IMG/VR virus record: IMGVR_UViG_3300024520_000076
Location: 1-59,730 of that record
Strand: one strand, 5' to 3'
Source: a virus
Taxonomy: Duplodnaviria > Caudoviricetes
DNA length: 59,730 nt
Shown here piece by piece: positions 22,135 to 46,800 of this stretch (its first letter is position 1; every line of letters starts with the position of its first letter). The notes under the pieces were generated by a model, which did no database searches, had not been told where the DNA came from, and worked only from the letters and a program-made list of their open reading frames with translations. The translations under genes and the position numbers were made by a program.

Positions 22135-24369
22135 TTATAATTCTTGGATCTCCATTGCGGTCTTTGCATCCCGTAACGATTGCTCCTGCTCAAACTTGGC
22201 TTGTTTGATTTGCATGTCAAGCTCAGCTTTTTGTTGTGCTATCTGCATTTTCATCTGGTGCTCCTGCATTTTAGCTTCCGCAGCAGGGTCAGGCCCTTCT
22301 TCAGTAGCCATATCTCCTTCAGCCGCACCCGCCTCCGTAGATTCACGCTGTAGTTTTTGAATATGCTTAGATGTGTTATTTATCATCTCTTCCGCATACT
22401 GTAACGCCTGTTTAGCTTGCCCGACTAACCCTTCCTGTAAAGGATCTCCCACAAGCTGCTCAGTAGTTGCCGCAATATGCTCATAAAATGCCTGTAGCGC
22501 AGGTAAAACAGCCGTAGGATCTGCTTGCCCAGCATCTAGCTGCTCAATAAGACCCATCAAGGCAGGAATGTGCTCCGCAAGATGCACTGCATGTAGCTCA
22601 GTCGTGACTACAGGAACTGGATTGCCCGCAGATAATTGTTGGTTTTCTAAGAACGCTATCTTTCCGTCTATCGTTGGCCTCGCTCCCTCGGCCACAGGGG
22701 CATACCTGTCAGCTAAATCATGACCCACACGAGTGGAAACTATGTCACGGGTAAGGTTCTTGCGCCCTACATCATCAAATGATCCCGCTATGCCTTGTAG
22801 CTCCCGTAACGCAACCAACCTGTTAGCATAAGATCCATTTCCAATAGACCTAACCGCTTTAGTCCTAGCTGTATCAAGACTCTTGATAAATGATTCCTGT
22901 ACCCCGCGCTCTGCACAACGACTATAAAATTCTTTCAACTCAGGATTGCCCTTCTTGCCCGACACAATCCTTCGGACTATTTCTTTAAGAAGCCTACCCC
23001 ATGATACATAGAACAGGTTTAAGGATGCACCAGATAAGCGGGTGCTAACATCTATGTCAGCTACCACCTGCATCTGATTCCTGTAAGGTGAACTCTGTTG
23101 AGGCCCGTATGTACTAACAGTATCAGTATTCTGAGCTAACTGGTTTGTAATATCCTCAAGAGCAGGTTGTACCCCAGTGCTCAAGTTAGGTGCAGCTTTT
23201 GTAATGATATTTACGTTGGGGGATAGGACAGCGTATGCTCCATAATAAGTGAACCCTAATTCATCTAGCGCCCTCTGGTTCTCTGGCTGAATCATAACCG
23301 CTGATCCTAACATCGCACCATCAATCATCTGGCAACGTAATCGGTTGCTCGTCTGAACGTGGTTAAAGATGCGATGCCCCAACCCGCGTATCGAATGGTA
23401 TGTGCCATTTGAACCCACACCATATGCGAACATCACGTACGCATGTTCTGGTTTTTCGTAACGGGAAATTTTTTCGTATAAGAATTTTTTAGGTTCCATC
23501 TCAGCGGAGATGTAATGAGATATACTTCCATCCAATTCCCTAACCCAAAAATGTAACACGGATATTGTAGGATTTTGATGCCCTCCATATATATCGTTGT
23601 TCTTCATCTCGGCTTGTAATGACTCCCAATCAGAATAATTATTTTTGGAGCTGCTCCTACCATCAGTAGTTACATTTTTAAGTAGCACTCTTTTTACCTC
23701 GTCCACATTCCATCCAACCTTTGCTGCCGCTTCAGGATTTTTGATAAAATTAAATAGCTCGTGCATGTGGTACTGCCTCCTACCAACAGCTACATCAATA
23801 GCCGCCTCAGAAGCAGGAGTCTGCCTCGGAATTAAAATATCAGCAAAACTCCCTACCCGAAATTTCCAGTCGTCTGGTGTATCAAAGTAGGTGATCCCTG
23901 TACCATGTTTTATGAACGTCGTACAAAGGCGCAAGTAGTGGGAATGGAATTCAGGCCAACTGCGTAGTAAATGAGTTATCTCTTCAGATACAATATCTTC
24001 CTGCTGGGTGATCTCACTGGGCTCTCCCTCCGTGCCCTTTACCTCCACTAGCTTTTCTAGTGAAGAGTAAAGGTCTACGTAGGCGGATAGCGAAATATCC
24101 AATAGCCGTTGAGCTTCACCAAAATTCAAATTAGTTTTAAGTCCCTGCCCACTTACGTTAAGCTGTGCTTGGTTGTATGGACTCGCCCCATCAAACATCG
24201 CATCCACCCTAGCTCGATTCACGGACGACTGCTCATCAGCTTTGCGAAGAGCTTGAAATAGACTCAGGGCGCTCTTTACATCTTTAATACGGCTTTTTAA
24301 AGGCTTACCTTTTTCGTCAAAAGTAGATAGTCCATCGAGTTCGTTCAGGGCATATGGGTCATGAGACAT
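22135..24369 (-). CDS. Portal protein
   Basis: 744 aa, helical, Q/E-rich C-terminal coiled-coil barrel, first gene of the head module. Confidence 0.8.
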   Translation of the reverse strand: MSHDPYALNELDGLSTFDEKGKPLKSRIKDVKSALSLFQALRKADEQSSVNRARVDAMFDGASPYNQAQLNVSGQGLKTNLNFGEAQRLLDISLSAYVDLYSSLEKLVEVKGTEGEPSEITQQEDIVSEEITHLLRSWPEFHSHYLRLCTTFIKHGTGITYFDTPDDWKFRVGSFADILIPRQTPASEAAIDVAVGRRQYHMHELFNFIKNPEAAAKVGWNVDEVKRVLLKNVTTDGRSSSKNNYSDWESLQAEMKNNDIYGGHQNPTISVLHFWVRELDGSISHYISAEMEPKKFLYEKISRYEKPEHAYVMFAYGVGSNGTYHSIRGLGHRIFNHVQTSNRLRCQMIDGAMLGSAVMIQPENQRALDELGFTYYGAYAVLSPNVNIITKAAPNLSTGVQPALEDITNQLAQNTDTVSTYGPQQSSPYRNQMQVVADIDVSTRLSGASLNLFYVSWGRLLKEIVRRIVSGKKGNPELKEFYSRCAERGVQESFIKSLDTARTKAVRSIGNGSYANRLVALRELQGIAGSFDDVGRKNLTRDIVSTRVGHDLADRYAPVAEGARPTIDGKIAFLENQQLSAGNPVPVVTTELHAVHLAEHIPALMGLIEQLDAGQADPTAVLPALQAFYEHIAATTEQLVGDPLQEGLVGQAKQALQYAEEMINNTSKHIQKLQRESTEAGAAEGDMATEEGPDPAAEAKMQEHQMKMQIAQQKAELDMQIKQAKFEQEQSLRDAKTAMEIQEL

Positions 24370-24378
24370 TAATATATA

Positions 24379-24406
24379 AATTTAAGTCTTTTTCACTCAT
24401 CATCAA
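24379..24406 (-). promoter_or_regulatory. Putative portal promoter
   Basis: TTGATG-N16-TAAATT-N9-ATG(24369). Confidence 0.45.
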
Positions 24407-24893
24407 GAGGGAATGTCTTAGTACTGCCCCAAGCGGAATGAACCACTTTTTCAACCTGAACATTGCGCCTCGTGCCTTCGTAGTCGTATAACAAAACGTA
24501 AGGCTTTTTATTAGATTTGGATACGGACTCTTTAAGCAAATACCGTTTTCCCGCGTATTGTCCTCGGCGGGGAGGGTCCATGCAATAGATTGCCCCGTGC
24601 TGGGCCACAGCATAGCGAGGAAAGTCAGGGACGGTGATAGCCTTCAAGTGTACCTCGATATCCTCCCTAGTGAGCTCTGGGGGCTTTCTTTTGAAAATGG
24701 CTTCGGCTAATCGTTTGGTATCGACAATAACTTGGTTATTATAATTATTATATATTACAGAGTACCACCGACCACTCTTGAGCTGGGAAGAGACACGCTT
24801 GCCCTTCCTATATATAAATCCGTTAGTGTCTATTTCATACTTACTGAATTGCGGGATGGGGCGGCGCTCATTTGTTTCGAGGAGGGTGTGCAT
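24393..24893 (-). CDS. Tandem NUMOD4-like DNA-binding protein lacking an HNH domain
   Basis: Two units: RPIPQFSKYEIDTNGFIY...KRLAEAIF and ITVPDFPRYAVAQHGAIY...EKVVHSAW. Start 24893 fits the promoter. Confidence 0.6.
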   Translation of the reverse strand: MHTLLETNERRPIPQFSKYEIDTNGFIYRKGKRVSSQLKSGRWYSVIYNNYNNQVIVDTKRLAEAIFKRKPPELTREDIEVHLKAITVPDFPRYAVAQHGAIYCMDPPRRGQYAGKRYLLKESVSKSNKKPYVLLYDYEGTRRNVQVEKVVHSAWGSTKTFPLDDE

Positions 24894-24898
24894 ATCGG

Positions 24899-24926
24899 AG
24901 GTTAGCATAGAAAAGAATTGATTCAA
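24899..24926 (-). promoter_or_regulatory. Putative promoter, near-leaderless
   Basis: TTGAAT-N16-(TGC)TAACCT-N5-ATG(24893). Confidence 0.55.
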
Positions 24927-24953
24927 ATTAAATACATAAAGTTTTTATATATA

Positions 24954-24995
24954 CTCAATACAGTTTATAACCTTTACATTATAAATTGTATTGAG
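24954..24995. repeat. 17-bp AT-rich inverted repeat
   Basis: CTCAATACAGTTTATAA-N8-TTATAAATTGTATTGAG. Confidence 0.85.
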
Positions 24996-25142
24996 GTCTT
25001 AAAGAAAGTTTTCAATTTGTGTTTACACGTAAAACAGCTTGTTTTTATAATTACCATAAAAATGTATATACAATGGCATTACGCTCATTTTAATCTTGTT
25101 CAATTCTTTGTTAGCGCTCATTCCTGATTCTTGCGCTCTAAA

Positions 25143-25385
25143 TTATGAGCGGTTAGTCGTAAGCCCTTTTCGAGCCCTCCTCTTTGCCATAATACGCTCC
25201 TTATTTTTGGTGTAGTACTCTTCATTATAACTCCGCTGCTCTTTCGTCCACTTGGGGTTCTCAGCCCTCTTCCGATCCCTCATAGCTGCTATGCGGTCTT
25301 TATTCTTTTCGTAGTACTTACGCTGGTATTCGAGGCGTTTCTTCTTGTTATTCCTATAATATTCTTGCTTCTTTTCATCAGGCAT
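25143..25385 (-). CDS. Small basic protein with YYxxNK repeats
   Basis: EYYRNNK, KYYEKNK, EYYTKNK. Start MPDEKK at 25385. Confidence 0.65.
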   Translation of the reverse strand: MPDEKKQEYYRNNKKKRLEYQRKYYEKNKDRIAAMRDRKRAENPKWTKEQRSYNEEYYTKNKERIMAKRRARKGLTTNRS

Positions 25386-25390
25386 ACTGA

Positions 25391-25418
25391 ATCTTATAAG
25401 CGGGCCAAAAGAAGTCAA
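25391..25418 (-). promoter_or_regulatory. Putative promoter, near-leaderless
   Basis: TTGACT-N16-TAAGAT-N5-ATG(25385). Confidence 0.65.
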
Positions 25419-25606
25419 ATTTTTTCTTATAACCCCCTATATATACAGATCAACACGCACAAAAACTCGTACACACAGGGGTGGCGTACCCCACAGAAGA
25501 ACCAAATCCACACGACTCATGGCTCATTGTACCCTGCACCGTTTACACGCCTATGGAATCCTGATTCATGCTTCTTGCTTCACGTTACCAGCTCCCACAA
25601 AAAAGT

Positions 25607-25782
25607 CAGGCTTCGCATTGTTTTTCGAGCGCAAGCGGTTAATAAGTTTAATGTTTTATCATGCGGCGCTTCGCCTCGCTTTTTGCAAAAGCATCAGCGC
25701 ATCACCTTAGTTTACGTTTAAAGTGTAACCAATGTTAAATCAAAAGACAGACAGGCTTCGCATTGTTTTTCGAACGCAAGCG
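25607..25782 (+). repeat. 31-bp direct repeat, 145-bp period
   Basis: CAGGCTTCGCATTGTTTTTCGARCGCAAGCG at 25607-25637 and 25752-25782 (1 mismatch). Confidence 0.9.
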
Positions 25783-25854
25783 AGTATTAAGCTCAATGTG
25801 TTGCGAAAGCGATTACGTTTAATGAGCACTTATATCGCCCACGCTTTCGTCCAC

Positions 25855-27008
25855 TTAAAGAGCACTAGCTTGGATCAGCCCCATCTCTTTCCGTGCTCTT
25901 TAAATTAAAAGGATGGGGCTGATCATTGATCCCTGAATCTTGAATCCTGACTCATAGTCTAATAAGTATTCATGCAGGTCATTTGTCTTTTCATCATGCT
26001 CCCCAAGCATGAGGAAAAGCCAAATAGGGGTTATCATTTTTCAAGTCAGTGAAAAGACAAAGCGGGCTCTTAATCTCTTGAGGAGGGCATATATCCCGAT
26101 AGTTTTATTCTAGTGCCACGTCTAATAGATTATATATCCTCCTCAAGACCCGCTTTGTTTTTTCTAATTATAAGTTCATGTAGCTACGTCTTGGCTAAAG
26201 CCCCCCTGCTTCGCCGTTGTAAAAACAGGACAAGAATCACTATTCCACTCCCCCCTAATCAGGGGAAGTAAAACAGCTCCCTGTGTCCAGTTTTTTTAAA
26301 CAGCATACACCGTTCATTCGCACGAAGATTTTGTGCTCTAATCGACCTGCAAATTGTCGATAAGAGCAAAATCTTCAGCACTCAATCCCCGAAAATCACG
26401 TGTTTTTTATGTGTCGTGGAGACACAAAAAACATGTGCCCAAGCCCTTCGGGCCGAATTCCCTCTTCTCCTAGTCATCATAGATGACGAAGATTTTATGA
26501 CTGGTTCCAAAACCAAACGAGTTTGGTTTTGCTGAATTCACAAAATTTCATGGCTCCTCTCGAGCCGAAATTTTATGTTCTTTCAGATCAAAATCTTCCG
26601 TCGGGCGAGAAAATCCCTTGGTTTTTGGGGCTGTTGTCTATTCCTTTAAACGCTAGGGTAGTTCGTTACAACAAGGCAGGAATAGCCATTAGCAGCACTA
26701 AGGCTCCGCCCTTAGCACTGGAACTGAACGCCCCTTAACAAATTTTCTCTCACTCAACCATTTTTACAAGGGCTAACCGCCCCAGTAAAAATACGGCCTC
26801 GTTTCTTCGGGATTAATGAACTCGCTAAAGGGGGAGATTCCCCCGACTGCGGCGTGTCCTCCGTCGTTCTTGCGTTTGTTCCTGAGCCCCTTCTTTTCCA
26901 TTTTTCTGTCCTCCACGGAGTTATGGACAAAAAAAGTGAAAAAGAAGACAAACGCAATCGCTCCCTCGGCCAGTCCTCATCGGCTAAATCTCAGCAGGAT
27001 TCTCGCTT
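25855..27008 (+). ncRNA. Candidate large structured non-coding RNA (or folded ssDNA element) of unknown family
   Basis: More than 12 adjacent or nested stems, a pseudoknot and no credible ORF. A G-U pair at 26400/26434 weakly favours the + strand. Confidence 0.55.
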
Positions 27009-27096
27009 GAAAGAAAATTTAAATACTTTAGTTGAAGCAAGTTTAGATTCAACTTCTACAAATAATAACAACAATACTAAACATAAAATAAAATAT

Positions 27097-27567
27097 ATGG
27101 CTACACAAAATAGCAACAACCTATCTGGTAAGAACTTCAAAACTGAACTAGATCTTACCTTATTAACCGCAATAGCACACACTATTGTTAACCACGAAAC
27201 AGCCTGTCTTGAAAATATGGTAAGAATATCTAAAGGACACATATGGCTAACTGTTTTTAACTTCTTCAAAAGAGATAAAAGCGGAGTCGCAACTGTTGAT
27301 GAATATGAGAACACTCATTCAACTAGTTTCAATACAACCCAAGAACAAAGAGAAAACTTTGGTGACATCGTTATCAAAGACAAAAAAGGCAACCCTATGT
27401 GCAACAACAAAGGTGAACCTTGGACTATTGCCTCTGTATTCTGTGGTAATACTCAGGAACTTGGACTCGTAAGAACAGCAGAAGAAGACGTACCTGACTC
27501 TGATGATCTTATTAACAAACTCGAAGCCATAGCTAAAGCTAAAGAAGAACTTGCTTCAAAAGCATAA
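27097..27567 (+). CDS. Early hypothetical protein, first gene of A-rich operon
   Basis: ATG 27097 (MATQNS) after an A-rich leader. The upstream in-frame extension lies in the hairpin region. Confidence 0.75.
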   Translation: MATQNSNNLSGKNFKTELDLTLLTAIAHTIVNHETACLENMVRISKGHIWLTVFNFFKRDKSGVATVDEYENTHSTSFNTTQEQRENFGDIVIKDKKGNPMCNNKGEPWTIASVFCGNTQELGLVRTAEEDVPDSDDLINKLEAIAKAKEELASKA

Positions 27568-27579
27568 ACTAACACCAAC

Positions 27580-27613
27580 AAGGGGCTCACTGTTTAATTG
27601 CAGTGAGTCCCTT
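27580..27613 (+). other. Intergenic stem-loop, copy 1
   Basis: AAGGGGCTCACTG-N8-CAGTGAGTCCCTT, no U-tract. Confidence 0.75.
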
Positions 27614-27640
27614 AACTTAAACATTCAAAATATAACTACC

Positions 27641-27982
27641 ATGTACATTGACCAAACATCCAGCCTACTCATCGCACTTATCATAACAATAGGTGCTTCA
27701 CTATTAATAATAGAGCTCTTATGCGCAAAGAAAGCGCTAGCTCGTAGAGAAAAGGATTACAGTTCACTTCGAAAAGTCCACGAAAGGAATGATAAAACAA
27801 TCAGAAATCAAAGGAAAAAAGCACTAAGAAAATGGATTACTGAAGTAGAATTCATAGCTCCCACAAATAAATACATTCAATTTCTTGAATCAGGATCAAA
27901 AAATTCCTTAACCAAATGGCAAAAAGATGTATTCACAGAAGCACTCAACGAGGTTGAACAATGGGGTCATGATTGCAATTAA
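27641..27982 (+). CDS. Early single-TM protein
   Basis: MYIDQTSSLLIALIITIGASLLIIELLC, then a basic region. Confidence 0.65.
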   Translation: MYIDQTSSLLIALIITIGASLLIIELLCAKKALARREKDYSSLRKVHERNDKTIRNQRKKALRKWITEVEFIAPTNKYIQFLESGSKNSLTKWQKDVFTEALNEVEQWGHDCN

Positions 27983-27993
27983 CGAAAAATAAT

Positions 27994-28494
27994 ATGAGCC
28001 ATATTATTAAACCACTACTAACTGAATCATCTTGGCATAAAGCAACCATCAAATCAAAAAACAAAACTATGAAAAAAGAACTACCGCACTTCGAATTCAG
28101 ACACGAACAATACGGTCATGTTAACACGCCATTTACAATCTGGGCTGACCCCCACAATTTCATTGGCGCAACATGGGCAACCATAAAAGATACTGAGAAA
28201 CAAATCGCTTACAATGTACAGGAAGAAAGCTTTGTATATAATATAGCAGATCTCTACTTATCTTTACGCAGTATTACAAGATCAATACTACTTAAATATA
28301 AAGCACAAGGAGGAGCCCCATCACTACGATTAAGTACTAGTCACCTACTCAGAAAGCTACTAGCAAAACCAATCAAAGAAAGAATGGGCGATATATCAAG
28401 AGACATATATACACTCCGTAAATTCCACCATGTATATGAAGTACTTCAAATCTTAACAGAAGACGAACCTATTAAAGTTTCAACAAAGAAATAA
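27994..28494 (+). CDS. Early hypothetical protein
   Basis: ORF in operon. Alternative start at 28069 has the AAAACTATG context. Confidence 0.6.
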   Translation: MSHIIKPLLTESSWHKATIKSKNKTMKKELPHFEFRHEQYGHVNTPFTIWADPHNFIGATWATIKDTEKQIAYNVQEESFVYNIADLYLSLRSITRSILLKYKAQGGAPSLRLSTSHLLRKLLAKPIKERMGDISRDIYTLRKFHHVYEVLQILTEDEPIKVSTKK

Positions 28495-28499
28495 AAACT

Positions 28500-28844
28500 A
28501 TGACAAATCCAACTATTAAAAGACACTGGACTACAGAGCACTACCCAAACGCAGTACCCATTGATCTATGGGAACTGATACGGGCATTAACATATCAGAT
28601 GAATCTTATGAATGGAGTGCCGCCTGAAAAAAGGCTCACTCCAGAATCATTCCAAGAAAAAGTAGCTTACTACACACAAGCTGGAACTAAGCTGGATGCT
28701 TATCGATCATACTCAGATAAACAAGGCAGATATTGCATGACAGTAGGCATCCGTTGCAGCAATGAAGACTCTGACTACTACAGTCCCCATCTCACATCGG
28801 AAGTCGCATCAAAATTTGACCTCGATCCACTCAACAAAGACTAA
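28500..28844 (+). CDS. Early hypothetical protein
   Basis: 114 aa, ATAAAAACTATG start context. Confidence 0.7.
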   Translation: MTNPTIKRHWTTEHYPNAVPIDLWELIRALTYQMNLMNGVPPEKRLTPESFQEKVAYYTQAGTKLDAYRSYSDKQGRYCMTVGIRCSNEDSDYYSPHLTSEVASKFDLDPLNKD

Positions 28845-28874
28845 GAATGGAACATTCAAATAAACCCTTAACTG

Positions 28875-28908
28875 GAGGGACTCACTGTAATAACACAGTG
28901 AGTTCCTC
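28875..28908 (+). other. Intergenic stem-loop, copy 2
   Basis: GAGGGACTCACTGT-N6-ACAGTGAGTTCCTC. Confidence 0.75.
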
Positions 28909-29098
28909 ACATTCTCACTTAACCACGCCAAGAAAAAGAAATAGTGTATTTTCCTATCAGAAAATACAATTACAAATAAAAAACATAGAAGAATCAACAC
29001 CTCATTTGTATATGAATACTACATATGAGACTTTCCAAAACAAAACAAACAAAAAAAACAACCCCCCATACCAAAACTAAATAAAAACTAAAAAAACT

Positions 29099-36984: not shown

Positions 36985-37096
36985 CCCTGACCCCTTGATT
37001 CTGAGCTAGGAATAAAGCTAGAGGAGAACTCTGGATGAGGCGTTTTTCATAGTAACGTCTTTGATGAACACCTAGTTTAGAATCAAGGGGTTAGGG
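36985..37096 (+). ncRNA. Candidate structured RNA: 26-bp stem closing a three-way junction
   Basis: 36985-37010 pairs with 37071-37096 with three G-U pairs and no mismatch. Two internal hairpins. Confidence 0.55.
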
Positions 37097-37629: not shown

Positions 37630-37860
37630 ATGAGTCTTAAACGATATCTTAAAATTGATGGCGGGGGTGACTACTCATGGCTTGCTCTTAAATCTATCTA
37701 CGGGAGATATGAAATAACAGGGGATCGTAAAGGATCTCGTGTCCTTCTATTCCGTGGACTGAGCGAAGACAATGCCATAGCGCACTTTAAGAACTTGGCA
37801 AACAAGCACGGGGCTTATTCGTTAAGCCGCCCTCTTACAAACTATCTGGTACGTACTTAG
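37630..37860 (+). CDS. Small hypothetical protein
   Basis: 76 aa, converges on the giant gene. Confidence 0.55.
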   Translation: MSLKRYLKIDGGGDYSWLALKSIYGRYEITGDRKGSRVLLFRGLSEDNAIAHFKNLANKHGAYSLSRPLTNYLVRT

Positions 37861-40800
37861 TTCTCGTCGTGCCTGTAGAAGCGTGGGATGTTCTTGAAGT
37901 AAGCGTCTAGTAGGCGCTCTCTTCGAAGGAAAAGGGCGATCCCTGTGCTCTCGTATTTATCCCGCAGTTTCTTTTTCAACCCCTTGTGTGTTTCCCTTGG
38001 GGTTTCAGTTAAACCATTAAGCATAAATTTGTACCTACGTTTTCCGAACTGCGCTCCATGAACTATGTTCCGCACTTCTTCCTCAGTCATGCCCGCCAAT
38101 GAGCCTAGGTGTTTTAGCGTATGTGCCACCTCTTTATCCAAACGAACTCTGTGGTCTATTTCATCTAGCACTAAACCCTTTATATCGTTATCAGAAAGAG
38201 GGGATTCACTAAGAACTTTATTCTTTCTAAGGGATATACTTTGTGTTTCTCTTCTTACGTCAAATAGGTATCTCCTCATGTTTTTTTGGATGTCTACTTT
38301 GTAGGGCTTTACAGGTAGGAATTCCTTTCCTATTCGTTTCATTACATCTTCTACAGGGTTAGTCCCCATCATCGTTATTGCTTCTCTACCCGCTTTCATA
38401 GTCCTTGGCTGGAATGCTTCTTCGAATAAATATTTTGCCCCCTTTAAAAATGCATCTTCAGCAGTATCTCTTTCTTCCCATATCTTTTTGTTTGTTTGCG
38501 GATCTCTATTAGCTTTTAAATTTAAGGCTGCTCCTGCAAATATCTGATCATCTAGGTACTCATCGACGATCATAGATTTAACAAAAGCAATCCCCATTTC
38601 TGCGGCGCTCCCTCCTGTAGCTCCTATTTCAAAACTACGTAAGAACGGGTCTACTATTAAAGAGAACGGATTCAGGTATGTTAAGTCTGTTGTCCATAGG
38701 TTCCCTTCATCATCTTTGGTTATATAGAAGGTATGGTTTTTGAGGTACTCTACTAAAGTCCTTCTTAATGCCGCATCTTCCTCATCGTCAACTCCTTCTC
38801 CTAACCTCATCAGTAGTGGAGCAACTGCGGATAATCCTACAGTTACAGAAGTCAATCCAAATAACCGCCTCAAACCTCTCCTTTTAATGACAGGGTTTTT
38901 ATCTTTTATTTCACTGAAGCTCCGCCGTAAAGTATTAATTGGTATTCTAATTAATTCGGTTTTGAATCGTATAAAAGGAGCGAACATCACACCAGCAGTA
39001 GATTTAGTCCATCCCTGTACAAATGGGGAAGACCTACTGTATGACTGGGCGGTATCTAAAACTATATCTGCCGCCGCTCTCTCAAGTTGGTTCTCTGTCA
39101 TATGGAAATACTTATCATCTCTGCCTTTTGCTACCGAATTTGCTTTAGCTTTCTTTAAAACACCAAGCTCATGTTCAAAATAGTATATCTTATAGAAGGT
39201 ATCCATCGTCGCTGACATCTCTTTGAGATTAGTGTACGCCTTGTGTAATGCGGTTCCTACTTTCTTTAAGTCTTCTGGCGTTGTACTCTCATCGGACAGT
39301 TCGTTGATGTCCTTCGTTGTCTCATATATGCGTTTCATCAAATCATTTGGGTCTGTATCCCCAGCGAATAATTCTTCCAACATCTTAGGACGGATCTCGT
39401 CGCCAATAATATCTAAAGCATCCAGCTTAGAATAGTAGGCATTAAGTTTTTCTGGCCCTAGTACGCCTTTAAAAAAGAATCCTTTTTTGCGTCCAATCTC
39501 TTTAATCATACTCCCTGTCAACGCCACAGGAGCTAGTATTCCTTGGGCGGGGCCGAAGAACAGTACGTTACTTAATGAGTTCCTTAAATAGAATCCTATG
39601 GAGCCTAATGTTTTAGCTGCCATTGATGACCCCGTTAACACCTGAGCTGCTTTTGTAATGCCTCTAGCTACTTGTTGCCCCTCATTCATTGAAAGAATAA
39701 CGCTGTCCCTTATTTCTTTCAAAGATTCCACCATTTCTGTGGGGGCAAAATATGATTCGTTCTTCCCTATGATTACGAAAGGATCATAGCGGGCATCCCC
39801 ATCTGCCATAAGAGTCCCCCATTTTTTTTGTTCTTCTAGCTCAAGACCCTCATGCTCGGCTCCAGTAATAATCCATCTGTTCTTTGCTTGTACCCCAAAA
39901 TCCAAAAGGTTTTTGAGGAACGCCTGATGAGATGCCATTATACCTACATGCATATAGGTACGCATAATCGCATCATATCCAGTAGAGTCTCCTTCTTCTC
40001 CCATTAGTTGCCTTAACGCATCTGGGATATTTTTCCTCCCCTTTAATTTTTCTTTTAATATAGCGGAAAACCCTATCCTGTTGTTTTTATCCTTTACCAT
40101 TTTGTTGGGGTCGATAAGTAATGCGTCTCCTGTACTATATGAGTTGAGAAACTCAATCATCATATTGTGTATCTTAGGGGGCATCTCAGTAGATGTTTTT
40201 CCTTGCCCTTCTGATAGCTCTGCCCTTGCTATAACTTCTGCGTCCCCCAAGCGGGTTACTACTTCGCCCGCTTTAACGTCGTCTGTAACATCAAGATCTG
40301 CGCTCTCCTCGGTAAACTTCTCGCTATTCCTGAGAATTTGAGCCGACCTTGCATTTATATATTCCTGCGTAAAAAACTTAGCTGCTTCTTCTCTTGCTGT
40401 TGCATACTTCTTCTCATGTAAAACTTTTCCAGCAAAGAACGGGTCTGAAAACAATTTGTATGATCTTGTTAAGTATATTTCCAAGTTACCGTCTATGGTC
40501 CCCTTCAAGGACTTCTGCATGTCCTCATCATTAGGGAACAGGACGGCTATCTTTTTAGAAAAAGCATCTGTCTTTTTCCTTAGCTCTAATAAGTGTAGCG
40601 CTATAGCTCCTTTGGGGGTTCCATCTTCTTCGTACCCTCCTAGTCGCATGATAGCATTATGTCTTCTATGAGCGATTAATGCTTTTTTATTTTGGTACGC
40701 CCTTTTGTAAGCCAGCTCTTTGTTATTCTCTAATTGTTTTATTTCTTCCAGTACTTCTTCCAACTCCCCGTTCCTTTTCTCACTCTCCTTCTCCTCTATG

Positions 40801-43800
40801 AGAGCTAATCGTTTATTATTTAAGACTACCTTTCTTTCCCTATACTTCTGCTCTATAAAATCATGTATCTCTGGTTCCAGTTTCAATGTCTCCCCGTCAC
40901 CTGTAATATCTTTAAACAATCCAACAGGGGCATCTCCATCTGGGTACTCTTTAGCAACCAAATAATCCAACCTACCTTTATACTTTTGTATCTCATTAAA
41001 GACTGCATTACGTAATGCCGTAGCTTGTTGATTTAATCTTTGAAGTCTTGGGTCAGCGCCTCCGACCAACCACTTCATAATTCCTTTAGGCTGTCCTTTA
41101 TACTTCCCTGTCTTGAACATAGGAAGGGTCAGCATAGCGGTTAAGTCTCCGTGTTTAAATATAGTGGGAGTCTCCCCATCTCCAGCAATTTGTGACTCTG
41201 TTATTTCTACCTCTTGGGTAGTAGTCGTGTCTGGCCCTGCTTCCAAGATGCTCGGGTCAAAAACAACAACTTCTCTTACATTCTTATCTGTGCCTTGCAT
41301 GTACTCAACAACACCTTTAATGTCCACAGAGGATAAAAGTAACCGTGTGACATTCCTTATTTGGTTGGGTGTCCAGTGAGATGTGGGCTCTTGTGGGTTG
41401 ATCCCTGCGTCCTCTACGATCTCGTAAGGGACTACTGTCCTTTCTTGCATCACCTTACCGCCCTCTATGTCGGCTGTGCCCATCCTTCTATTAAGAGCCC
41501 CTATAAAATCGTTCCCTGCTCCTTCTCTATGCGGCCAATAAACCTTACCTTTTTCAGTAAACTCACTCCAATCTTTATATGGAACTTCTTCCCTCACAAC
41601 ACCGCTACTGTCTGCCTCGGGGTGTCCCTCGCCTACGTATTTTTCTACTACGTAGCTTAACTTTTGTGCGAGCTTATCTAGTTTACCTTGCAGCTCTGAG
41701 GACCATTTCGATCCTATTCTATAGATATCCCCCTCGTGCCTTTTTTTAACTCTGAGTCTAAAAAGGTTTCCTCTGGCTTCGTAGGTACTGAGGCGGCTTC
41801 TTGCGTTATCAGTTGCCCCTTCATTAGAAGCTAAGAAATAAATACCAGCACCATTGATAGCGGCTGTTCCCTTAAAGTCTGATTCGGACCACCCAATACG
41901 AGCCCAGTCGAATCTTTTAATGTCGTCTACCTTTTGATATGTGAAGAGATCCTTATTTGTAAAGCTCTCGGGTATTTTGGATGATTCTACAATACCTATA
42001 CCTACTGCTGGTGTAGGTATTGTAGCCGTGAACAGTTTTTGTATTTCCTCTTTCCCTCTAGCCGTGATATCTCTTGAGCCTATTCCAGCAAATTTATCTG
42101 ACAAAGTAGGGGGTCTGCTTGTTACCCAGCTACCTTCTCTGTCCAAGTGGGGAGCCCACTTGTGCCACTGATTGGACACCATGTCGAAGACATGAACTTC
42201 TTTCCCCTGATCTATCCCCATTTGGGTGGCCCACGCAGTACCACCTTTCACTTGACCCCCCACAAAGCGGCTTACAGCTATTACTTGGTCAGAGTCCCTG
42301 ACCTGAAACCAATTTCTTCTGAGGAGGTTGTTCACAAACTTCCCCTTGGTAGGCCATGCTCTATCAAGAGTTTCATTGGCCTTAGCTAGATGTTCGTTAG
42401 CTTCCTTTAGTTCCTCTGCGGTATGTGGGGTGCGGTGCTTATTGCCCTTAGCATGTCCTTCAAATGAGTGAGCCTCTACCTTGAACCCTGCTTCCAGAGC
42501 TGCGAACTCGAACGCTGTATCTGCTCCAGACGCTCCTCCAGAATGGAGAACCCTCTCTACTGCTGGAGTCCCCCCGTCCCCCAAATAGTTTAAAGTCATA
42601 GGGTCACGCAACCCGAGATCAACGAGAATCTCATGTATAGCTCTGGCTTGTGTATTTACATTATCTCCATCCCCTCCAAATTTATCTGTTAATACTTTAC
42701 CTGAACTAGCCCTTCCTATTTCAGCTAACGCTTTTGGGTTAGCAATAAAATATTCTGCCCACAACCCCTTATAAGTTGCCCAGTACCAGCTATCTTCTCT
42801 GTCCAAGTGGGGAGCCGCTGGTAACCCCTTTCCTGATTGTTTAGCCTCTTTTTGCCACACATATTCTATTGTTTTTCCAGAAGGGAGCTTTGCTTTCTTA
42901 GCGGAGAACTTTACTCCTATTCCTTCTTCATCCTTCCCTGCTGTTGACACCTCAAACCCTTCAAATCCTTTACGAGCAACTTTACCAAATCCTCTCGGTG
43001 AGGCTGTATCTACTGGTGGTGCTGTATCTCTGAGTAGCTTATGGAACCCTTCTTCAAACACAATATTGGAGGGTATCTCCCCTGCGTCTAAATACATTTT
43101 AGCCATCTGCGCCCCTGTCCAGCCACTCAATCCCCCTTTCGTTTTCTGAGCTACTAAGAATTCTTTATCTGGCTTAGAACGAGCTGTATCATATAGCTTA
43201 CGAATATTTTTAGTTATCTCTTCTGGTGATAATGATTTTTTATCTGTTGCTGTTTTCTTAGTAGGGAGCGCATAGGAAGTTCCATCCTTTCCATCCTGAA
43301 GTCCTTCAGCTTGCCCTTTTACATTCCACTTACCTTCTTCCCCTTTCTCCTGCTTATTATAATTACTGTCTGCTCTAAGTTTCTTAAACTCATCTACACT
43401 TTTCCCCTCACCAAAAGTTGCGTACCCTGCTGCCCCTGCTCCGTGGAAACCCTGTAGGTTGGACCCGAACACAAATACTTGGTTTTTGTCTAGGGAGGTT
43501 ACTTCTCCTTTGTATGTTTTCGAAGGAACAACCTTTGATGCTGCTCTTCTTTTAATAACAAACGTCTTTAAAGCTTCAGCGTGATTAGGCTTGATATTTT
43601 CATCATAATATAAAAGACTTTTTCCATCTAAAGCACCACTATCAATCTGTCCCAGAATCCATTCCCTACGGTTCTGATATTTATCTTTATGCTCAAAGTC
43701 TTCATCACCTTCCAACCATTTACGATAATATTCTACAGTCTGATCTAGGTTTTTAGTTGGTATAGTATTTTTGAAACCTCGATGACTAAATGGATTACCA

Positions 43801-46800
43801 AAATGTTTTTCCCCAACATCCCATTTTCTAAGTACGTTTATACCATCTCCAGCATCTTCTGCATCTTGAACTAATTCAGTAACCTTTCTCCCTTTTTTTC
43901 GTTTAACATAAACAACATTTGGTTCGGCTACAGGCGCTGGTGGTCCTTTCTCAATTCGATCTACGACGGAAGAAAAGTTTGCTATTTTAGCCTCGTCAGT
44001 AGCGTCTACATCCAAAGGCACTATCCCTAAATTCTTTTCGATAGCCTCGCTGAGTTTATCTAGTCCTTGTACACTAGAGTTCTGTATAATGGGGGGTATT
44101 TCTATTTCTGTATTAGGTATAAATTCAGGAAGAACTTGGGGGCCGCTCCCATCTGAATTAAGTGGTTCTCTAATGTCTCCGAACTCTTCATCAAGGCTTT
44201 CGGCTACTCTCTTTAAAGTAGGGCTTCCATAGAAATCATCTACGTCTTTCTGTGTTGGTCCTTTATTGAACCAACCTTTTTTCTTACTTAACCCGAAAAT
44301 AGGATACCATTTCCCCGCATTCGGCTTTCCTCCTAAGCCTGTTGAAAGATAGAAAGGAACAACCACACCATTTACATTCCTAAAAACAATAGCCCTCTTA
44401 GCAAAATTAACCATAGGTGCTGAGTTTGTCTCATCATAAGGAACATCTACTGCGGTAACTTGTGGCTCTCCAACATAAACATCAACGGGGTCCATACCCC
44501 TATCCGCTTCTGATACCTTTGTCTGCCCTTCGAAAGTATGTATGACTTGTAATGGATTATCAGGGTCAAATGCTGGGACATGCTCTGTTGCATACCCCGA
44601 TTTCATATCATTATACGCGGCGACGACTCGATATGCCATCTTCCGAAGTACAGGATTATCTCCAGATTTACTATTTAGGATTTCCAGAAGTTTCCCACTT
44701 AGTTTTTTCAAGTGGCGTACGAATATCTTCAGTAAACTAGGGTTCCCTTTAAAGAAATCTGCATCCTGCTCTGTGGTGGTTCCACTTAATATACGCTGGG
44801 CGTGCATACGTAAAATTTCTTTTGCTAGGGTTCGTTGCTCCGCTTGCCATCCAAACCCCTCCTGCACTTCAACATCAGTTTGTTGCAGCCTTGCCCGCGC
44901 TGCTTCCCTGTCCTCCTCCTTCGTGTAATAAGCTTCTATAACAAAATCAATATCTTCTTGTGACAAAGATTGATATACTTCAGTGAGTTCCTCAGTTGTC
45001 AGGTCTGCTAAAGTAGCATGATGTATTACTTCCTCTATAAGACCAGCCCCTGCTAAGTTCCGAGCGTTAAAATTTGATAAATTTTTAAGTGCATCTCCTA
45101 ACGCTCTAGGCTCTATGCGTATGTAAGCCTCTGTTTCAGTTACTACATGGGAGAAAGCTTTGATGGGCTTCCCACTATCATCCGCATACTTCCTCTGTTC
45201 ATCTGACACAAACTTCACATCGACTCCAAAAGCACGGCCTAATAAAACCAATTCATTTAGAGTGCCCTGAAGGTTAGCAAGTGCGTCCTGTTCTTGTGGT
45301 GTATGGTCTTCATTTATAGTTGTAAATATCTCTATTTGTTTTGCGTGTTTAGGATCAACAGGGGCTTCTGCCTCTGCTGCGTCTTCATCCTTTGTCTCCT
45401 CCTTTGTCTCCTCCTTTGTCTCCTCCTTTGTCTCCTCCTTTGTCTCCTCCACAATAACTTCAGCCTCTGTATTTTCTATTACTGCTTTATCCCCATTCGC
45501 TATGGTGTTTATCAGGTCTTCTTTTTCTTTTGCTTGTTGCTCTGGAGTCTTCTCTGTAGCTAGTTCACCTTCAACTTTTTGTACGTCTTTCCATTTTATA
45601 CCAACAGCTTCGGCTGCTTTTTCGTTGGCTTCCATCTCCATAGCAATGGCAGCAGGGTCCATTAAGTCATCAGGATAACTTTCTTGGTGTCGTAACTGGG
45701 CGTGTGCCCTCTCATGTTCCTCAATAAATTTAATGTACCCGTTAACTCCACCCTCACTCCCCCTTAGTTTCTTTTTTAACTTTGCTAAGTCTACATCTTT
45801 GAAAACTTCTTTCTTCTGTTGTGAAGTCTTGCTGTCCACATCACCTGCCAAATAAGGGAGAGGCTCATCGGCATTAAAATCTTCTGCTATGTCCTGAGTA
45901 TATAAAGTTATCTCCCCCGTTTCTCTATTCAGCCCAGCTAACTGACCTGCTTTTTTAGATGAATCTTTTACTATCGATATCCCTAATTCCTCATCTGAAA
46001 CTTTCTGGCTAGCGTCTGCGAGCTTCTGGGATTGCTCAATGGCAGTCCCTATCATAGTACTATAATCCTTTGGCATCTCCCGCATTTCTGTCGCACGTAG
46101 CTGTTGCCTCGTGATTCCTTCCATTACAACATTAGCAGTCAGTGGAGAGTTGGTTTCTTTTAGGTGTGCTATTAATTTAGTTTCTTCGCTCTGCCTCAAC
46201 ATCTCCACCTCTCCTCGGGCAAAAGCCCCTTTCTTTTCCGCTATCGCCCTGACTCCAGCAGCCCCCTGACCAATTACACCCCCTATTGCTCCTGCGTATA
46301 GCGCAGCAGATACCCTTTCAATCATAGGGGTATTCTCATTTAGCGCCGCATCTACAATAAACGAATTAATAAACTCATCTATACCCTCCTCAAAAAATTC
46401 TTCAGTTCCACTTTTCAGATACCTTCTGTATATATCAGGGAATACTTTAGGTACAACTTCTTTAATCCTTCCCGATAACCATGTACGCATCGCCTCGCCG
46501 TGTTCGGACTTAGTTATCTTAGACCTACGCATTCTTTCCAAAACAGATCTGTGTTGCTTGTAAGTGATCCCCCTAAGAAATGCATCTTCAAAACCACCCG
46601 CACCAACACTACTGAACCCTGCTGTTATAATACCTGTTGCCATACCTGCCGTTAGCGCAGCGCCTAAAGCGGCATCATGTTTCTCTTCATGCGTACCTTC
46701 CATGTTACCATAGACCGTGGCATAAGTAGCCCCTGATGATCTATTAGCAGCGGTCAGGAATAAGGCAGAAGTCTGTACCCCCGTTACTAAGTTGCTCCTT

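Follow-up and report, generated by a model that had tools for sequence, protein, structure and literature searches.

A dense chain of stem-loops in a strain-specific cassette at the start of the early region in an uncultured marine phage

In the early operon leader of phage T7, tandem strong promoters are followed by RNase III hairpins. Folded DNA can also serve as a signal upstream of first-expressed genes, as in the hairpin promoters of the phage N4 virion RNA polymerase and the single-strand promoters of plasmid leading regions. The untranslated repeat region 3/injection stop signal (iss) of phage T5 is more than 1 kb of non-coding DNA, crowded with inverted repeats and palindromes, that lies by the first-expressed genes and next to poorly conserved ORFs (bioRxiv 10.1101/866236). 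In that report, the region is placed in the terminal repeat and carries eight DnaA boxes, and its order and sequence are highly conserved in 25 T5-like phages (10.1101/866236). The PeSL (promoter-early stem-loop) cassettes of T4-type phages consist of a repeated conserved promoter plus stem-loop motif, one per ORFan; the stem-loops are terminators or attenuators, the early regions that hold them are hyperplastic and rich in ORFans, and recombination breakpoints fall at the stem-loops (PMC2839356).

We analyzed a 1154-nt interval (25855-27008) in the genome of an uncultured marine phage. All coordinates refer to the window, that is, the whole 59.7-kb stretch of DNA analyzed, of which the interval makes up 1.9%. 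As in the T7 early leader, direct repeats 145 nt apart are followed by long, slightly imperfect hairpins before the first early gene, with more hairpins between the early genes; the putative leader is here ~1.2 kb long with at least 12 hairpins, several times longer than that of T7. Hairpins upstream of the first-expressed genes also recall the N4 and plasmid leading-region promoters, from which the locus differs in that no virion RNA polymerase was recognized, its stems, at 16-32 bp, are not short, and a repeated consensus is lacking. With T5 region 3/iss the interval shares a scale of more than 1 kb, a richness in palindromes and a place beside the first early genes; unlike that region, it is absent from 61 relatives and holds no DnaA box. 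The resemblance to PeSL cassettes lies in the hyperplastic location, in strain breakpoints (27594-27626) that fall on a hairpin whose stem is repeated at 28875-28908, and in a relative, L009, with a hairpin module ahead of each small early ORF. Unlike those cassettes, the interval lines up a dozen unrelated hairpins without intervening ORFs or a recognizable promoter, and the only motif they share is a duplicated GAAGATTTT stem. Size range, phage association and non-coding status are features in common with large ornate RNAs such as GOLLD and ROOL (PMC12286853). The interval has no Rfam match and no homolog family, and it folds as a local hairpin chain in place of their conserved multi-junction architecture.

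The spacer and its strain-specific cassette

The interval forms the core of an ORF-free spacer of ~1.45 kb (about 25460-26922) with the start of m2 on its left and the first rightward early ORF on its right (Table 1). The m2 gene, the first of the leftward structural operon, has tblastn matches in most of the 61 related loci, and a GTATATATA motif lies upstream of it at 25438-25446 on the minus strand. The genome as a whole is without Shine-Dalgarno sites. Between m2 and the interval lie two direct repeats, which we regard as candidate tandem early promoters or iterons; among 114 loci this 62-nt repeat was found only in the window's own locus and in one other contig, L086. The motif GCTTCGC, present in each repeat, has eight copies in the window, four of which are at 25610-26214, all on the plus strand. 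Read by eye, repeat copy 1 also contains TTG, then 21 nt, then TAAGTTTA, a near-match to a promoter.

An earlier note, made from the sequence alone, had taken the entire interval to be non-coding. This stands up to position 26922, where we found no ORF, and fails for the last 86 nt (26923-27008) because an ORF opens at ATG 26923. In L086 a separate 71-aa ORF begins at the equivalent ATG; the window has 121 nt fewer than L086 after 27015, so that its ORF reads into e1. In the standard code no frame exceeded 124 codons, and the one of that length belongs to e1; reading through TGA, TAG or TAA singly, as in alternative codes, gave no convincing ORF.

The earlier note recognized no RNA family in the interval, and the Rfam search it called for bears this out. 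Across the whole window, no model of Rfam 15 (GOLLD, ROOL, OLE, HEARO, raiA, group I and II introns and tmRNA included) matched at its gathering threshold, and the relatives L006, L008, L009, L014, L042 and L086 likewise gave no matches. When 25300-27200 was searched by E-value, 10 sub-threshold matches were obtained (8 miRNA-precursor models, 1 snoRNA and 1 group II-D5), scoring 16-22 bits against gathering scores of 40-230, with E-values of 0.15-3.7. Searches for homologs gave a similar picture. Comparison of 25600-27100 with the 61 related loci by blastn, tblastx and nhmmer yielded no match and no trace of the relatives' genes, and blastn of 24300-27200 against the phage collection also found none. 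By tblastn, the terminase had a single match at 25% identity and a 744-aa protein had none; scans of IMG/VR with the early proteins e1 and e3 revealed no relatives. A pattern scan of IMG/VR for hairpin 26051-26164 returned 22 stretches, none with extended similarity, and in a single-hairpin pattern scan of one JGI metagenome 9 of 10 stretches were unrelated hairpins.

The sole homolog found, L086, is 99% identical and differs by five substitutions in the interval. These fall within 1068 nt of non-coding sequence; the 346 nt immediately left of it hold 8 differences (Fisher p 0.005). Contigs from sister strains leave the sequence at 25447-25753 and rejoin it at 27594-27626, on the hairpin past the e1 stop codon. 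The interval is part of a strain-specific cassette (about 25455-27600) within the hypervariable head of the early region. Among the 24 sequencing runs listed for 24000-29000 none was of RNA; in runs X4-X6 contigs left some bins of the interval uncovered, an observation on which we base no conclusion. In the closest relatives, which share 85% amino acid identity in a neighboring gene, the corresponding gap is 830-850 nt of little structure or, as in L045, almost none. These results indicate that the element is dispensable for the family.

Folding of the interval

We scanned both strands in 200-nt segments, comparing each with 25 dinucleotide shuffles; ten single elements were compared with 200 shuffles each as plus-strand RNA, minus-strand RNA and DNA. 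A coarse z-score from composition regression understates the signal relative to true shuffles and was used for ranking only. The folding excess is real: most 200-nt segments in 25801-26700 have z of -3.0 to -5.4 on the plus strand and -3.0 to -9.1 on the minus strand, against a background over the first 16.7 kb with means of -0.24 and -0.30, respectively, and sd 1.36. The exceptions are 25901-26100 (z -0.6 on plus, -1.2 on minus) and, on the plus strand, 26101-26300 (z +0.1), and 26601-27000 is weakly structured (z -1.2 to -2.1). Among 41 windows compared on both strands, span-limited MFE is each time lowest for the 1.1 kb that begins at 25821, the most stably folding kilobase of the genome. 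Six of the 25 longest local inverted repeats (the best 25 of 29 in the window) fall in the interval. Nine of the ten single elements are significant, with z of -2.4 to -6.8 as plus-strand RNA, -3.8 to -7.3 as minus-strand RNA and -3.6 to -7.4 as DNA (Table 1).

Table 1. Landmarks of the spacer and stem-loops of the interval; z-scores from dinucleotide shuffles are given as plus-strand RNA, minus-strand RNA and DNA
Feature	Position	Strand	Description	z (+ RNA)	z (- RNA)	z (DNA)
m2	25143-25418	-	91-aa conserved ORF, gene 1 of leftward (structural) operon; left landmark of gap
Direct repeats (two, 62 nt)	25596-25657, 25741-25802	+	82% identical, 145 nt apart; GCTTCGC in each
Hairpin	25873-25924		18-nt arms (25873-90/25907-24)	-6.8	-7.3	-7.1
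Hairpin	25981-26025		20-nt arms (25981-26000/26006-25), 90% complementarity, 5-nt loop	-5.9	-5.0	-7.4
Two-tier hairpin	26051-26164		114 nt (26051-66/26149-64 and 26076-93/26131-48)	-6.8	-6.2	-6.7
Hairpin	26221-26295	-	32 bp with 8 G-U; forms well on minus only	-2.4	-7.0
Hairpin	26320-26379		26320-46/26356-79, closed by GAAGATTTT/AAAATCTTC	-6.3	-5.6	-6.0
Hairpin	26397-26437		19-nt arms (26397-26415/26419-37); slightly better on plus	-5.5	-3.9
Mini-hairpin	26442-26456	+	GCCC-TTCG-GGC; C(UUCG)G loop on early-sense strand
Three-way domain	26488-26598		second GAAGATTTT/AAAATCTTC helix (26488-96/26590-98) around hairpins 26508-26531 and 26539-26577	-4.6	-6.4	-5.6
Predicted multibranch domain	26600-26749		only inner hairpin 26693-26720 neat	-0.27	-1.64	-1.18
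Hairpin	26758-26796			-3.4	-3.8	-3.9
Mini-hairpin	26830-26844		GGGGGA-GAT-TCCCCC, seen in fold
Hairpin	26870-26957	+	88 nt (26870-79/26948-57; 26890-905/26932-47)	-4.3	-4.9	-5.3
First early ORF	26923-27567	+	opens at ATG 26923; runs in frame into e1 (own ATG 27097)
Hairpin past e1 stop codon	27580-27613	+	14 bp; right edge of strain-specific cassette; stem recurs at 28875-28908

Every helix listed in the earlier note was recovered, including the one it described as used twice, since GAAGATTTT/AAAATCTTC closes both hairpin 26320-26379 and the three-way domain; four of the seven occurrences of GAAGATTTT in the window are within the interval, in the order +,-,+,-. Its statement that almost the whole interval is paired was too strong, as expected pairs number 359 on the plus and 391 on the minus strand, or 62-68% of bases. 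The multibranch domain that it placed at about 26607-26749 is indistinguishable from shuffled sequence. Pairing is mostly local: pairs spanning 170 nt or less account for 88% (plus) and 91% (minus) of those expected, and among high-confidence pairs none of 162 on the plus strand and 5 of 232 on the minus strand span more than 170 nt. The fold looks like some 12-15 independent stem-loops in tandem, together with a small three-way domain, without overall closure. The proposed likeness to a single large ornate RNA of the GOLLD or ROOL kind is not supported, given this local architecture, a multibranch domain at chance level, and a sequence that is missing from 61 of 61 loci and swapped in near-identical strains.

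Hairpin 26051-26164 has a GC-rich base (GCGGG/CCCGC) flanked by an A-tract and a T-tract and is therefore terminator-like in both directions. A GC-rich stem followed by a T-run, as in intrinsic terminators, is also present at 26221-26302, and at each of the two sites T-runs follow on both strands (at 26164 and at 26295-26302). A terminator scan of 24300-27600 found 7 sites versus 2.9 ± 2.2 in shuffles, four of them inside the interval: 26277-26239 and 26453-26437 on the minus strand, 26551-26567 and 26849-26867 on the plus strand. Early genes of this phage are likewise followed by hairpins, at 27580-27613 and 28875-28908. At the right end of the interval, ATG 26923 sits in the loop and 3' arm of hairpin 26870-26957, a candidate start-codon occluder. 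The exact Bacteroidota-type -7 promoter motif is TAnnTTTG. It is absent from 25455-27000, and a scan for sigma-70-type promoters was at chance (8 found, 5.9 ± 2.7 expected), in agreement with the earlier note, which had seen no convincing promoter.

The evidence on molecule and strand is mixed. Overall the minus strand folds better (-429.8 versus -371.1 kcal/mol), and all three L086 substitutions at paired positions keep a wobble pair on the minus strand and break the pair on the plus strand (p 0.125). The plus strand is favored by hairpin 26397-26437 and by the UUCG loop at 26442-26456; loops of the C(UUCG)G type are especially stable in RNA. This loop on the plus strand and the 8 G-U pairs of hairpin 26221-26295, with their minus-strand bias, are signs of structure at the RNA level. 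For the hairpins of the interval, z-scores with DNA parameters are as significant as those with RNA parameters. We also considered the G-U asymmetry of the whole interval (19 on plus, 44 on minus) as proof of a minus-strand RNA and rejected it, the same ratio being found at 10501 (29 versus 60) and 46501 (22 versus 66).

A proposed leader RNA and its rivals

Our preferred explanation, which we hold tentatively, is that the interval, in the hypervariable head of the early region, is transcribed as non-coding leader or spacer RNA, some of its stem-loops being terminator-like, others serving in processing or in occlusion of a start codon. Transcription of the interval, the strand or strands involved and every functional role are inferred. 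The spacer RNA would act in cis as punctuation of the early region. The A/T-tract-flanked hairpins 26051-26164 and 26221-26302 might halt or weaken transcription that enters from the left or the right, the stems of 16-32 bp, long and slightly imperfect, could be processing or stability elements, and hairpin 26870-26957, the last in the series, would hide the ATG at which the first early ORF begins. The location immediately before the early genes makes a structured leader plausible. It is supported by the folding excess, the local architecture and the lack of ORFs between conserved m2 and the early ORFs, by the T-runs after GC-rich stems, and by the hairpin around ATG 26923, which opens a real-looking ORF in L086. 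The signs of RNA-level structure, the low density of substitutions relative to L086, the hairpins after other early genes and compensatory changes in the counterpart of two relatives (L006 and L008) point the same way. Against it stand the conflicting strand signals, the equal significance of DNA parameters, promoter scans at chance and a family that manages without the element; in addition, terminator-like hairpins within a leader would need read-through.

Equal significance with DNA parameters, found for 9 of 10 hairpins, and the folding of both strands would also suit a signal at the DNA level, in which the inverted repeats form extruded hairpins, cruciforms or folded single strands. They could then work as structure-dependent promoters, as a signal for entry or for a pause in injection like T5 iss, as priming sites or as an origin. 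A place just ahead of the early genes and next to direct repeats resembles the repeat- and palindrome-rich untranslated region of T5 (10.1101/866236), and the L006/L008 counterpart lacks a wobble bias between strands (45 versus 41). We nevertheless think such a signal unlikely. Unlike T5 iss the interval is not conserved in relatives, as plus-strand DNA hairpin 26221-26295 would hold 8 A-C mismatches, and no virion or single-subunit RNA polymerase was recognized in the genome. Neither a Pfam family nor a PDB chain matched a giant 3564-aa ORF that we considered as a virion RNA polymerase, and in PHROG it matched a DprA-like segment and families without a known function; a very divergent polymerase is conceivable. 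An origin within the interval was rejected, as the two DnaA boxes (TTWTNCACA) of the window are at 14.6 and 15.2 kb and cumulative GC skew, with extremes near 3 kb and 53 kb, does not turn at 25-27 kb; genes for replication and terminase lie at least 25 kb away. Genome ends in the gap were also considered and set aside as less likely. Of the 61 related contigs, about 10 stop in the 2.4 kb upstream of m2, no clear enrichment in the tabulated ends; five of these ends fall in the neighboring 2.2-kb gene, and full-length contigs end elsewhere. The record has no end repeats.

The headline of the earlier note was a large ornate RNA, and one or two free RNAs, large, structured and non-coding, that belong to a new family and act in trans would fit the strong folding excess without a known family. 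Convergent transcripts could stop at the two central hairpins, which are terminator-like in both directions; the G-U-rich hairpin 26221-26295, specific to the minus strand, the few changes relative to L086, wobble-compatible on that strand at all three paired sites, and the L006/L008 positional counterparts with compensatory changes are further points in its favor. We consider it quite improbable, given long near-perfect local stems in place of conserved junctions (88-91% of pairs local), a sole multibranch domain at chance, no promoter in the scans, replacement of the region in sister strains and no homolog beyond the 99% identical one in IMG/VR relatives or in the single-hairpin scan of one JGI metagenome. 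That same replacement, where the genome is most open to exchange and with strain contigs rejoining at a hairpin, raises the equally doubtful prospect that the stem-loops are a functionless by-product, either orphans of repeated cassette exchange at hairpin junctions (compare PeSL) or what is left of decayed small early genes rich in hairpins, such as L009 has; that relative shows that hairpin-saturated early coding DNA occurs in the family. The lack of IMG/VR relatives for e1 and e3 and the duplicated GAAGATTTT/AAAATCTTC stems, which suggest local duplication, agree with such an origin. However, tblastx and nhmmer show no remnant of the relatives' genes, the hairpins all differ, as copies of a repeated cassette motif would not, stems with z as low as -7 would erode quickly if selection did not maintain them, and substitutions are less dense than in the neighboring non-coding stretch.

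Structured counterparts in relatives

Some relatives have unrelated structured stretches at the same genomic position. In L006 and L008 the counterpart is 830-900 nt long and contains four copies of a hairpin with a conserved loop; the pair shows 16 compensatory double changes, significantly more than the 3.4 ± 1.7 expected. L009 has at least 4 kb of hairpin-saturated early DNA, coding genes included, with a sharp end at the late operon and a repeated hairpin module before each small early ORF. In this lineage the interval may represent a rapidly evolving class of large, structured elements without coding function, kept at a fixed position upstream of m2 at the head of the early region in a family of uncultured marine phages, with position and dense folding conserved and sequence fully replaced. 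Such early RNAs or folded DNA might be decoys or shields against host nucleases or structure-sensing defense, a role that would explain both selection for structure and rapid replacement; we put this whole picture, the class of elements and its role, forward as a speculation that is rather unlikely to hold.

To our knowledge, no described mechanism can be assigned to selected structure that, in a dsDNA phage, pervades the early region only. By itself, the interval is a cluster of stem-loops, particular to one lineage, in the control region of a phage, a familiar feature that is here unusually long and dense. Its greater value is as a pointer, since one position in this family repeatedly holds unrelated, strongly folding and often ORF-poor DNA. 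A defense system triggered by palindromic phage DNA has been reported (PMC11707656). If palindromic DNA does trigger defense, such a hairpin load may be costly to the phage, and its persistence would need explaining.

Setting and limits of the interval

The window, 59,730 nt in length, is a complete linear virus record of IMG/VR for which CheckV estimated a completeness of 98%; genes identified by Pfam and PHROGs are listed in the Table. No cultured phage relatives were found, a weak terminase match being the only one obtained. The 3564-aa ORF had no Pfam or PDB match, and its PHROG matches were confined to a DprA-like segment and families of unknown function. The genes have A-rich leaders without Shine-Dalgarno sites, which presumably points to a Bacteroidota host, and the sequence is present in sequencing runs whose labels read seawater or marine metagenome.

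The hairpin-dense interval sits in a divergent gap, with the leftward operon on its left and low-GC, A-rich, rightward early genes on its right. The two small genes m1 and m2 of the leftward operon gave tblastn matches in most of 61 related loci. The ORF-free stretch reaches leftward to about 25460, including two direct repeats, and reassignment of stop codons opened no convincing ORF in it. The earlier note took 25855-27008 to be non-coding throughout; this holds up to 26922 and fails beyond it. The JGI metagenome contig L086, the sole homolog of the interval found, is 99% identical across 25509-27662 and carries 121 additional nt after window position 27015 that are absent from the window. 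The counterpart of ATG 26923 in L086 starts a separate protein-like 71-aa ORF that ends before the early gene e1 (L086:1414-1630 region), whereas in the window this ATG is in frame with e1 and the first 31 codons of the 71-aa ORF are fused to the e1 frame. Because this ATG opens an ORF in L086 and reads into e1 in the window, the non-coding part stops at 26922, and the hairpin around it straddles the start codon.

Features of the window (z, folding z-score)
Feature	Position	Strand	Remarks
m1	24393-24926		small conserved gene, leftward operon
m2	25143-25418	-	small conserved gene, starts leftward operon
Small hairpin with motif TACGCCACCC	25470-25495		motif shared with related phage locus L009 (L009:8978-9004); in both, it closely precedes the conserved promoter region of m2, TATATAT...TATAAGAAAAAAT-TTG; last conserved sequence ahead of the variable region
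Direct repeats	25596-25802		two of 62 nt, 145 nt apart
Hairpin at start codon	26870-26957		coding begins at ATG 26923
Stem CTCACTG...CAGTGAG, copy 1	27580-27613		directly 3' of e1 stop codon
Stem, copy 2	28875-28908		3' of stop codon of ORF 28500-28844
Hairpin at convergent junction	36985-37096		26-bp arms enclosing two small hairpins; very strong, z -6.6; between early/middle genes and 3564-aa ORF; probably a bidirectional terminator
3564-aa ORF	37857-48551	-	DprA-like segment at residues 2001-2132 (PHROG)
Large terminase	51679-53448	-	Pfam/PHROGs
1979-aa tail protein			Pfam/PHROGs
Primase, helicase, exonuclease, Holliday-junction resolvase			Pfam/PHROGs

Folding and architecture

All helices listed in the earlier note are present in the interval sequence. 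In 200-nt windows, folding exceeded that of dinucleotide shuffles across most of 25801-26700 on both strands (z -3 to -9; genome background -0.24 +/- 1.36), while 26601-27000 gave z of just -1.2 to -2.1. Nine of ten elements were individually significant whether taken as plus-strand RNA, minus-strand RNA or DNA; the exception was the proposed multibranch domain at 26600-26749 (z -0.27, -1.64 and -1.18, respectively). Six entries in the list of the genome's 25 longest local inverted repeats fall within the interval, and on both strands its span-limited MFE is the lowest in a set of 41 windows, each 1.1 kb long. Furthermore, the eight lowest 1-kb averages of the composition-regressed score all came from it (-1.60 versus -0.96 for the next region). 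With these corrections, the observed hairpin density is real.

The partition function over 1154 nt placed 88% (plus) and 91% (minus) of expected pairs within spans of <=170 nt; among pairs with p > 0.9, 0 of 162 and 5 of 232, respectively, spanned >170 nt. The stems are 16-32 bp long and near-perfect, with small loops, and are arranged head to tail. GOLLD/ROOL-type RNAs are expected to be junction-rich, whereas the interval is a chain of local stems. Two stems have GC-rich bases between A- and T-tracts and, judged by sequence, look like bidirectional terminators. An Rfam search of the interval gave no family match at gathering scores, and six related loci likewise gave nothing in Rfam. The label of a new large ornate RNA is not earned, and the one homolog found, L086, is 99% identical.

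Promoter scans found no promoter for the interval, nor had the earlier note found a convincing one. By eye, copy 1 of the direct repeats contains TTG, 21 nt and then TAAGTTTA, which we take to be near the Bacteroidota promoter consensus; the repeats are possible tandem early promoters. GCTTCGC occurs in four plus-strand copies between 25610 and 26214.

Cassette exchange and structured relatives

Similarity to the 61 related loci ended at about 25592, and 25600-27100 had none (blastn, tblastx, nhmmer); the neighbouring 744-aa protein shares 50-85% amino-acid identity with those loci. The adjacent early proteins e1 and e3 are orphans too. Contigs from other seawater runs were 90-99% identical on the m1/m2 side. 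The match of these sister-strain contigs breaks off at 25447-25455 and at 25753, where their sequence becomes unlike, and it returns from 27594-27626; identical pieces were present in one run. Since contigs depart left of the interval and resume past e1, the interval and e1 form a strain-specific cassette. Its right edge is a hairpin whose stem recurs downstream (Table), and the switch of sister contigs at the first stem copy suggests cassette exchange at these stem-loops. L086 differs by 5 substitutions in the 1068-nt non-coding interval versus 8 differences in 346 nt on the left (Fisher p 0.005), which is compatible with constraint or mosaic ancestry.

The scan for structured stretches covered the 3.2 kb preceding m2 on its early side in the 39 loci with sufficient flank; a locus counted as structured when its best 1-kb score was <= -1.5. 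Eleven of the 39 were structured, and the window ranked 9 of 40. The structured stretch was ORF-poor in L006, L014, L042 and L015 and coding in some others; none resembled the interval in sequence. The loci L006 (3040-3870) and L008 (5076-5983) are 81-90% identical over this ORF-poor stretch, which is more conserved than the adjacent ORF (67-69%). A structure predicted from L006 only showed 16 compensatory double changes in L008 versus 3.4 +/- 1.7 expected (maximum 9 in 500 re-deals), and 26 pairs were broken versus 41.7 +/- 2.6 expected. RNAalifold found 17 compensatory pairs. A conserved-loop hairpin with a covarying stem occurs four times in each of the two; no other IMG/VR contig has more than a single copy. 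Wobble changes showed no strand bias (45 versus 41), and the stretch had no Rfam match. As a candidate new structured element, this stretch is stronger than the interval of the window.

Between about 4800 and 9000 of L009, z against dinucleotide shuffles was about -2 to -14 in every 200-nt window on both strands, and the signal ends abruptly at the m2 promoter. Short perfect hairpins saturate the whole early side of this locus, tiled small ORFs included. At least three early ORFs have a repeated two-hairpin module ahead of them, in which one hairpin has a C(UUCG)G loop on the sense strand. A conserved 376-aa gene also lies in the structured DNA; its homolog in locus L024 (46% amino-acid identity) is not structured. 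An element of about 85 nt, roughly 97% identical and weakly structured, lies inside the otherwise variable ORF-free gap of three other loci (L042:7615-7700, L054:8053-8140, L055:8028-8115).

A possible regulatory hairpin cluster in the early region

The best fit, which we hold tentatively, is that the interval is transcribed as a non-coding leader or spacer of the early region and acts in cis. It would consist of stem-loops, each folding independently, at the head of that region, which is exchangeable; these may serve termination or attenuation, or processing or stability, and one would occlude the start codon of the first early ORF. Arguments for RNA are that plus-strand occlusion, a plus-strand C(UUCG)G loop and the G-U-rich hairpin 26221-26295, which needs eight G-U pairs and is strong on the minus strand alone (z -7.0 versus -2.4); arguments for DNA are equally strong z-scores with DNA parameters and the folding of both strands. 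The overall 2:1 minus-strand G-U excess was rejected as a distinctive signal and is compositional, because other genome windows match it. All three L086 substitutions at paired positions of the predicted structures turn the pair into G-U when the minus strand is folded and into a mismatch when the plus strand is (n=3, p 0.125).

Signals acting as DNA hairpins are a less likely alternative; the interval contains no DnaA boxes and GC skew does not turn there. Still less probable, and about equally so, are one or two free novel ncRNAs, set against the local architecture described here, and relics, devoid of function, that cassette exchange or hairpin-rich genes would have left behind.

For such a leader or spacer, further comparisons are the T7 early leader, N4 hairpin promoters and plasmid single-strand promoters. 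Among the closest described systems is the untranslated iss region of T5, which is conserved and has many DnaA boxes, the interval differing in both respects (10.1101/866236). Another is the PeSL cassettes of T4-type phages, from which the interval differs in that these are a repeated promoter-plus-stem-loop, one per ORFan (PMC2839356). On this reading the interval is a cluster of regulatory hairpins in the early control region of a phage, a known kind of feature. The more interesting lead is at the level of the family: a candidate structured element conserved in position and divergent in sequence, with compensatory evolution in a sister pair.
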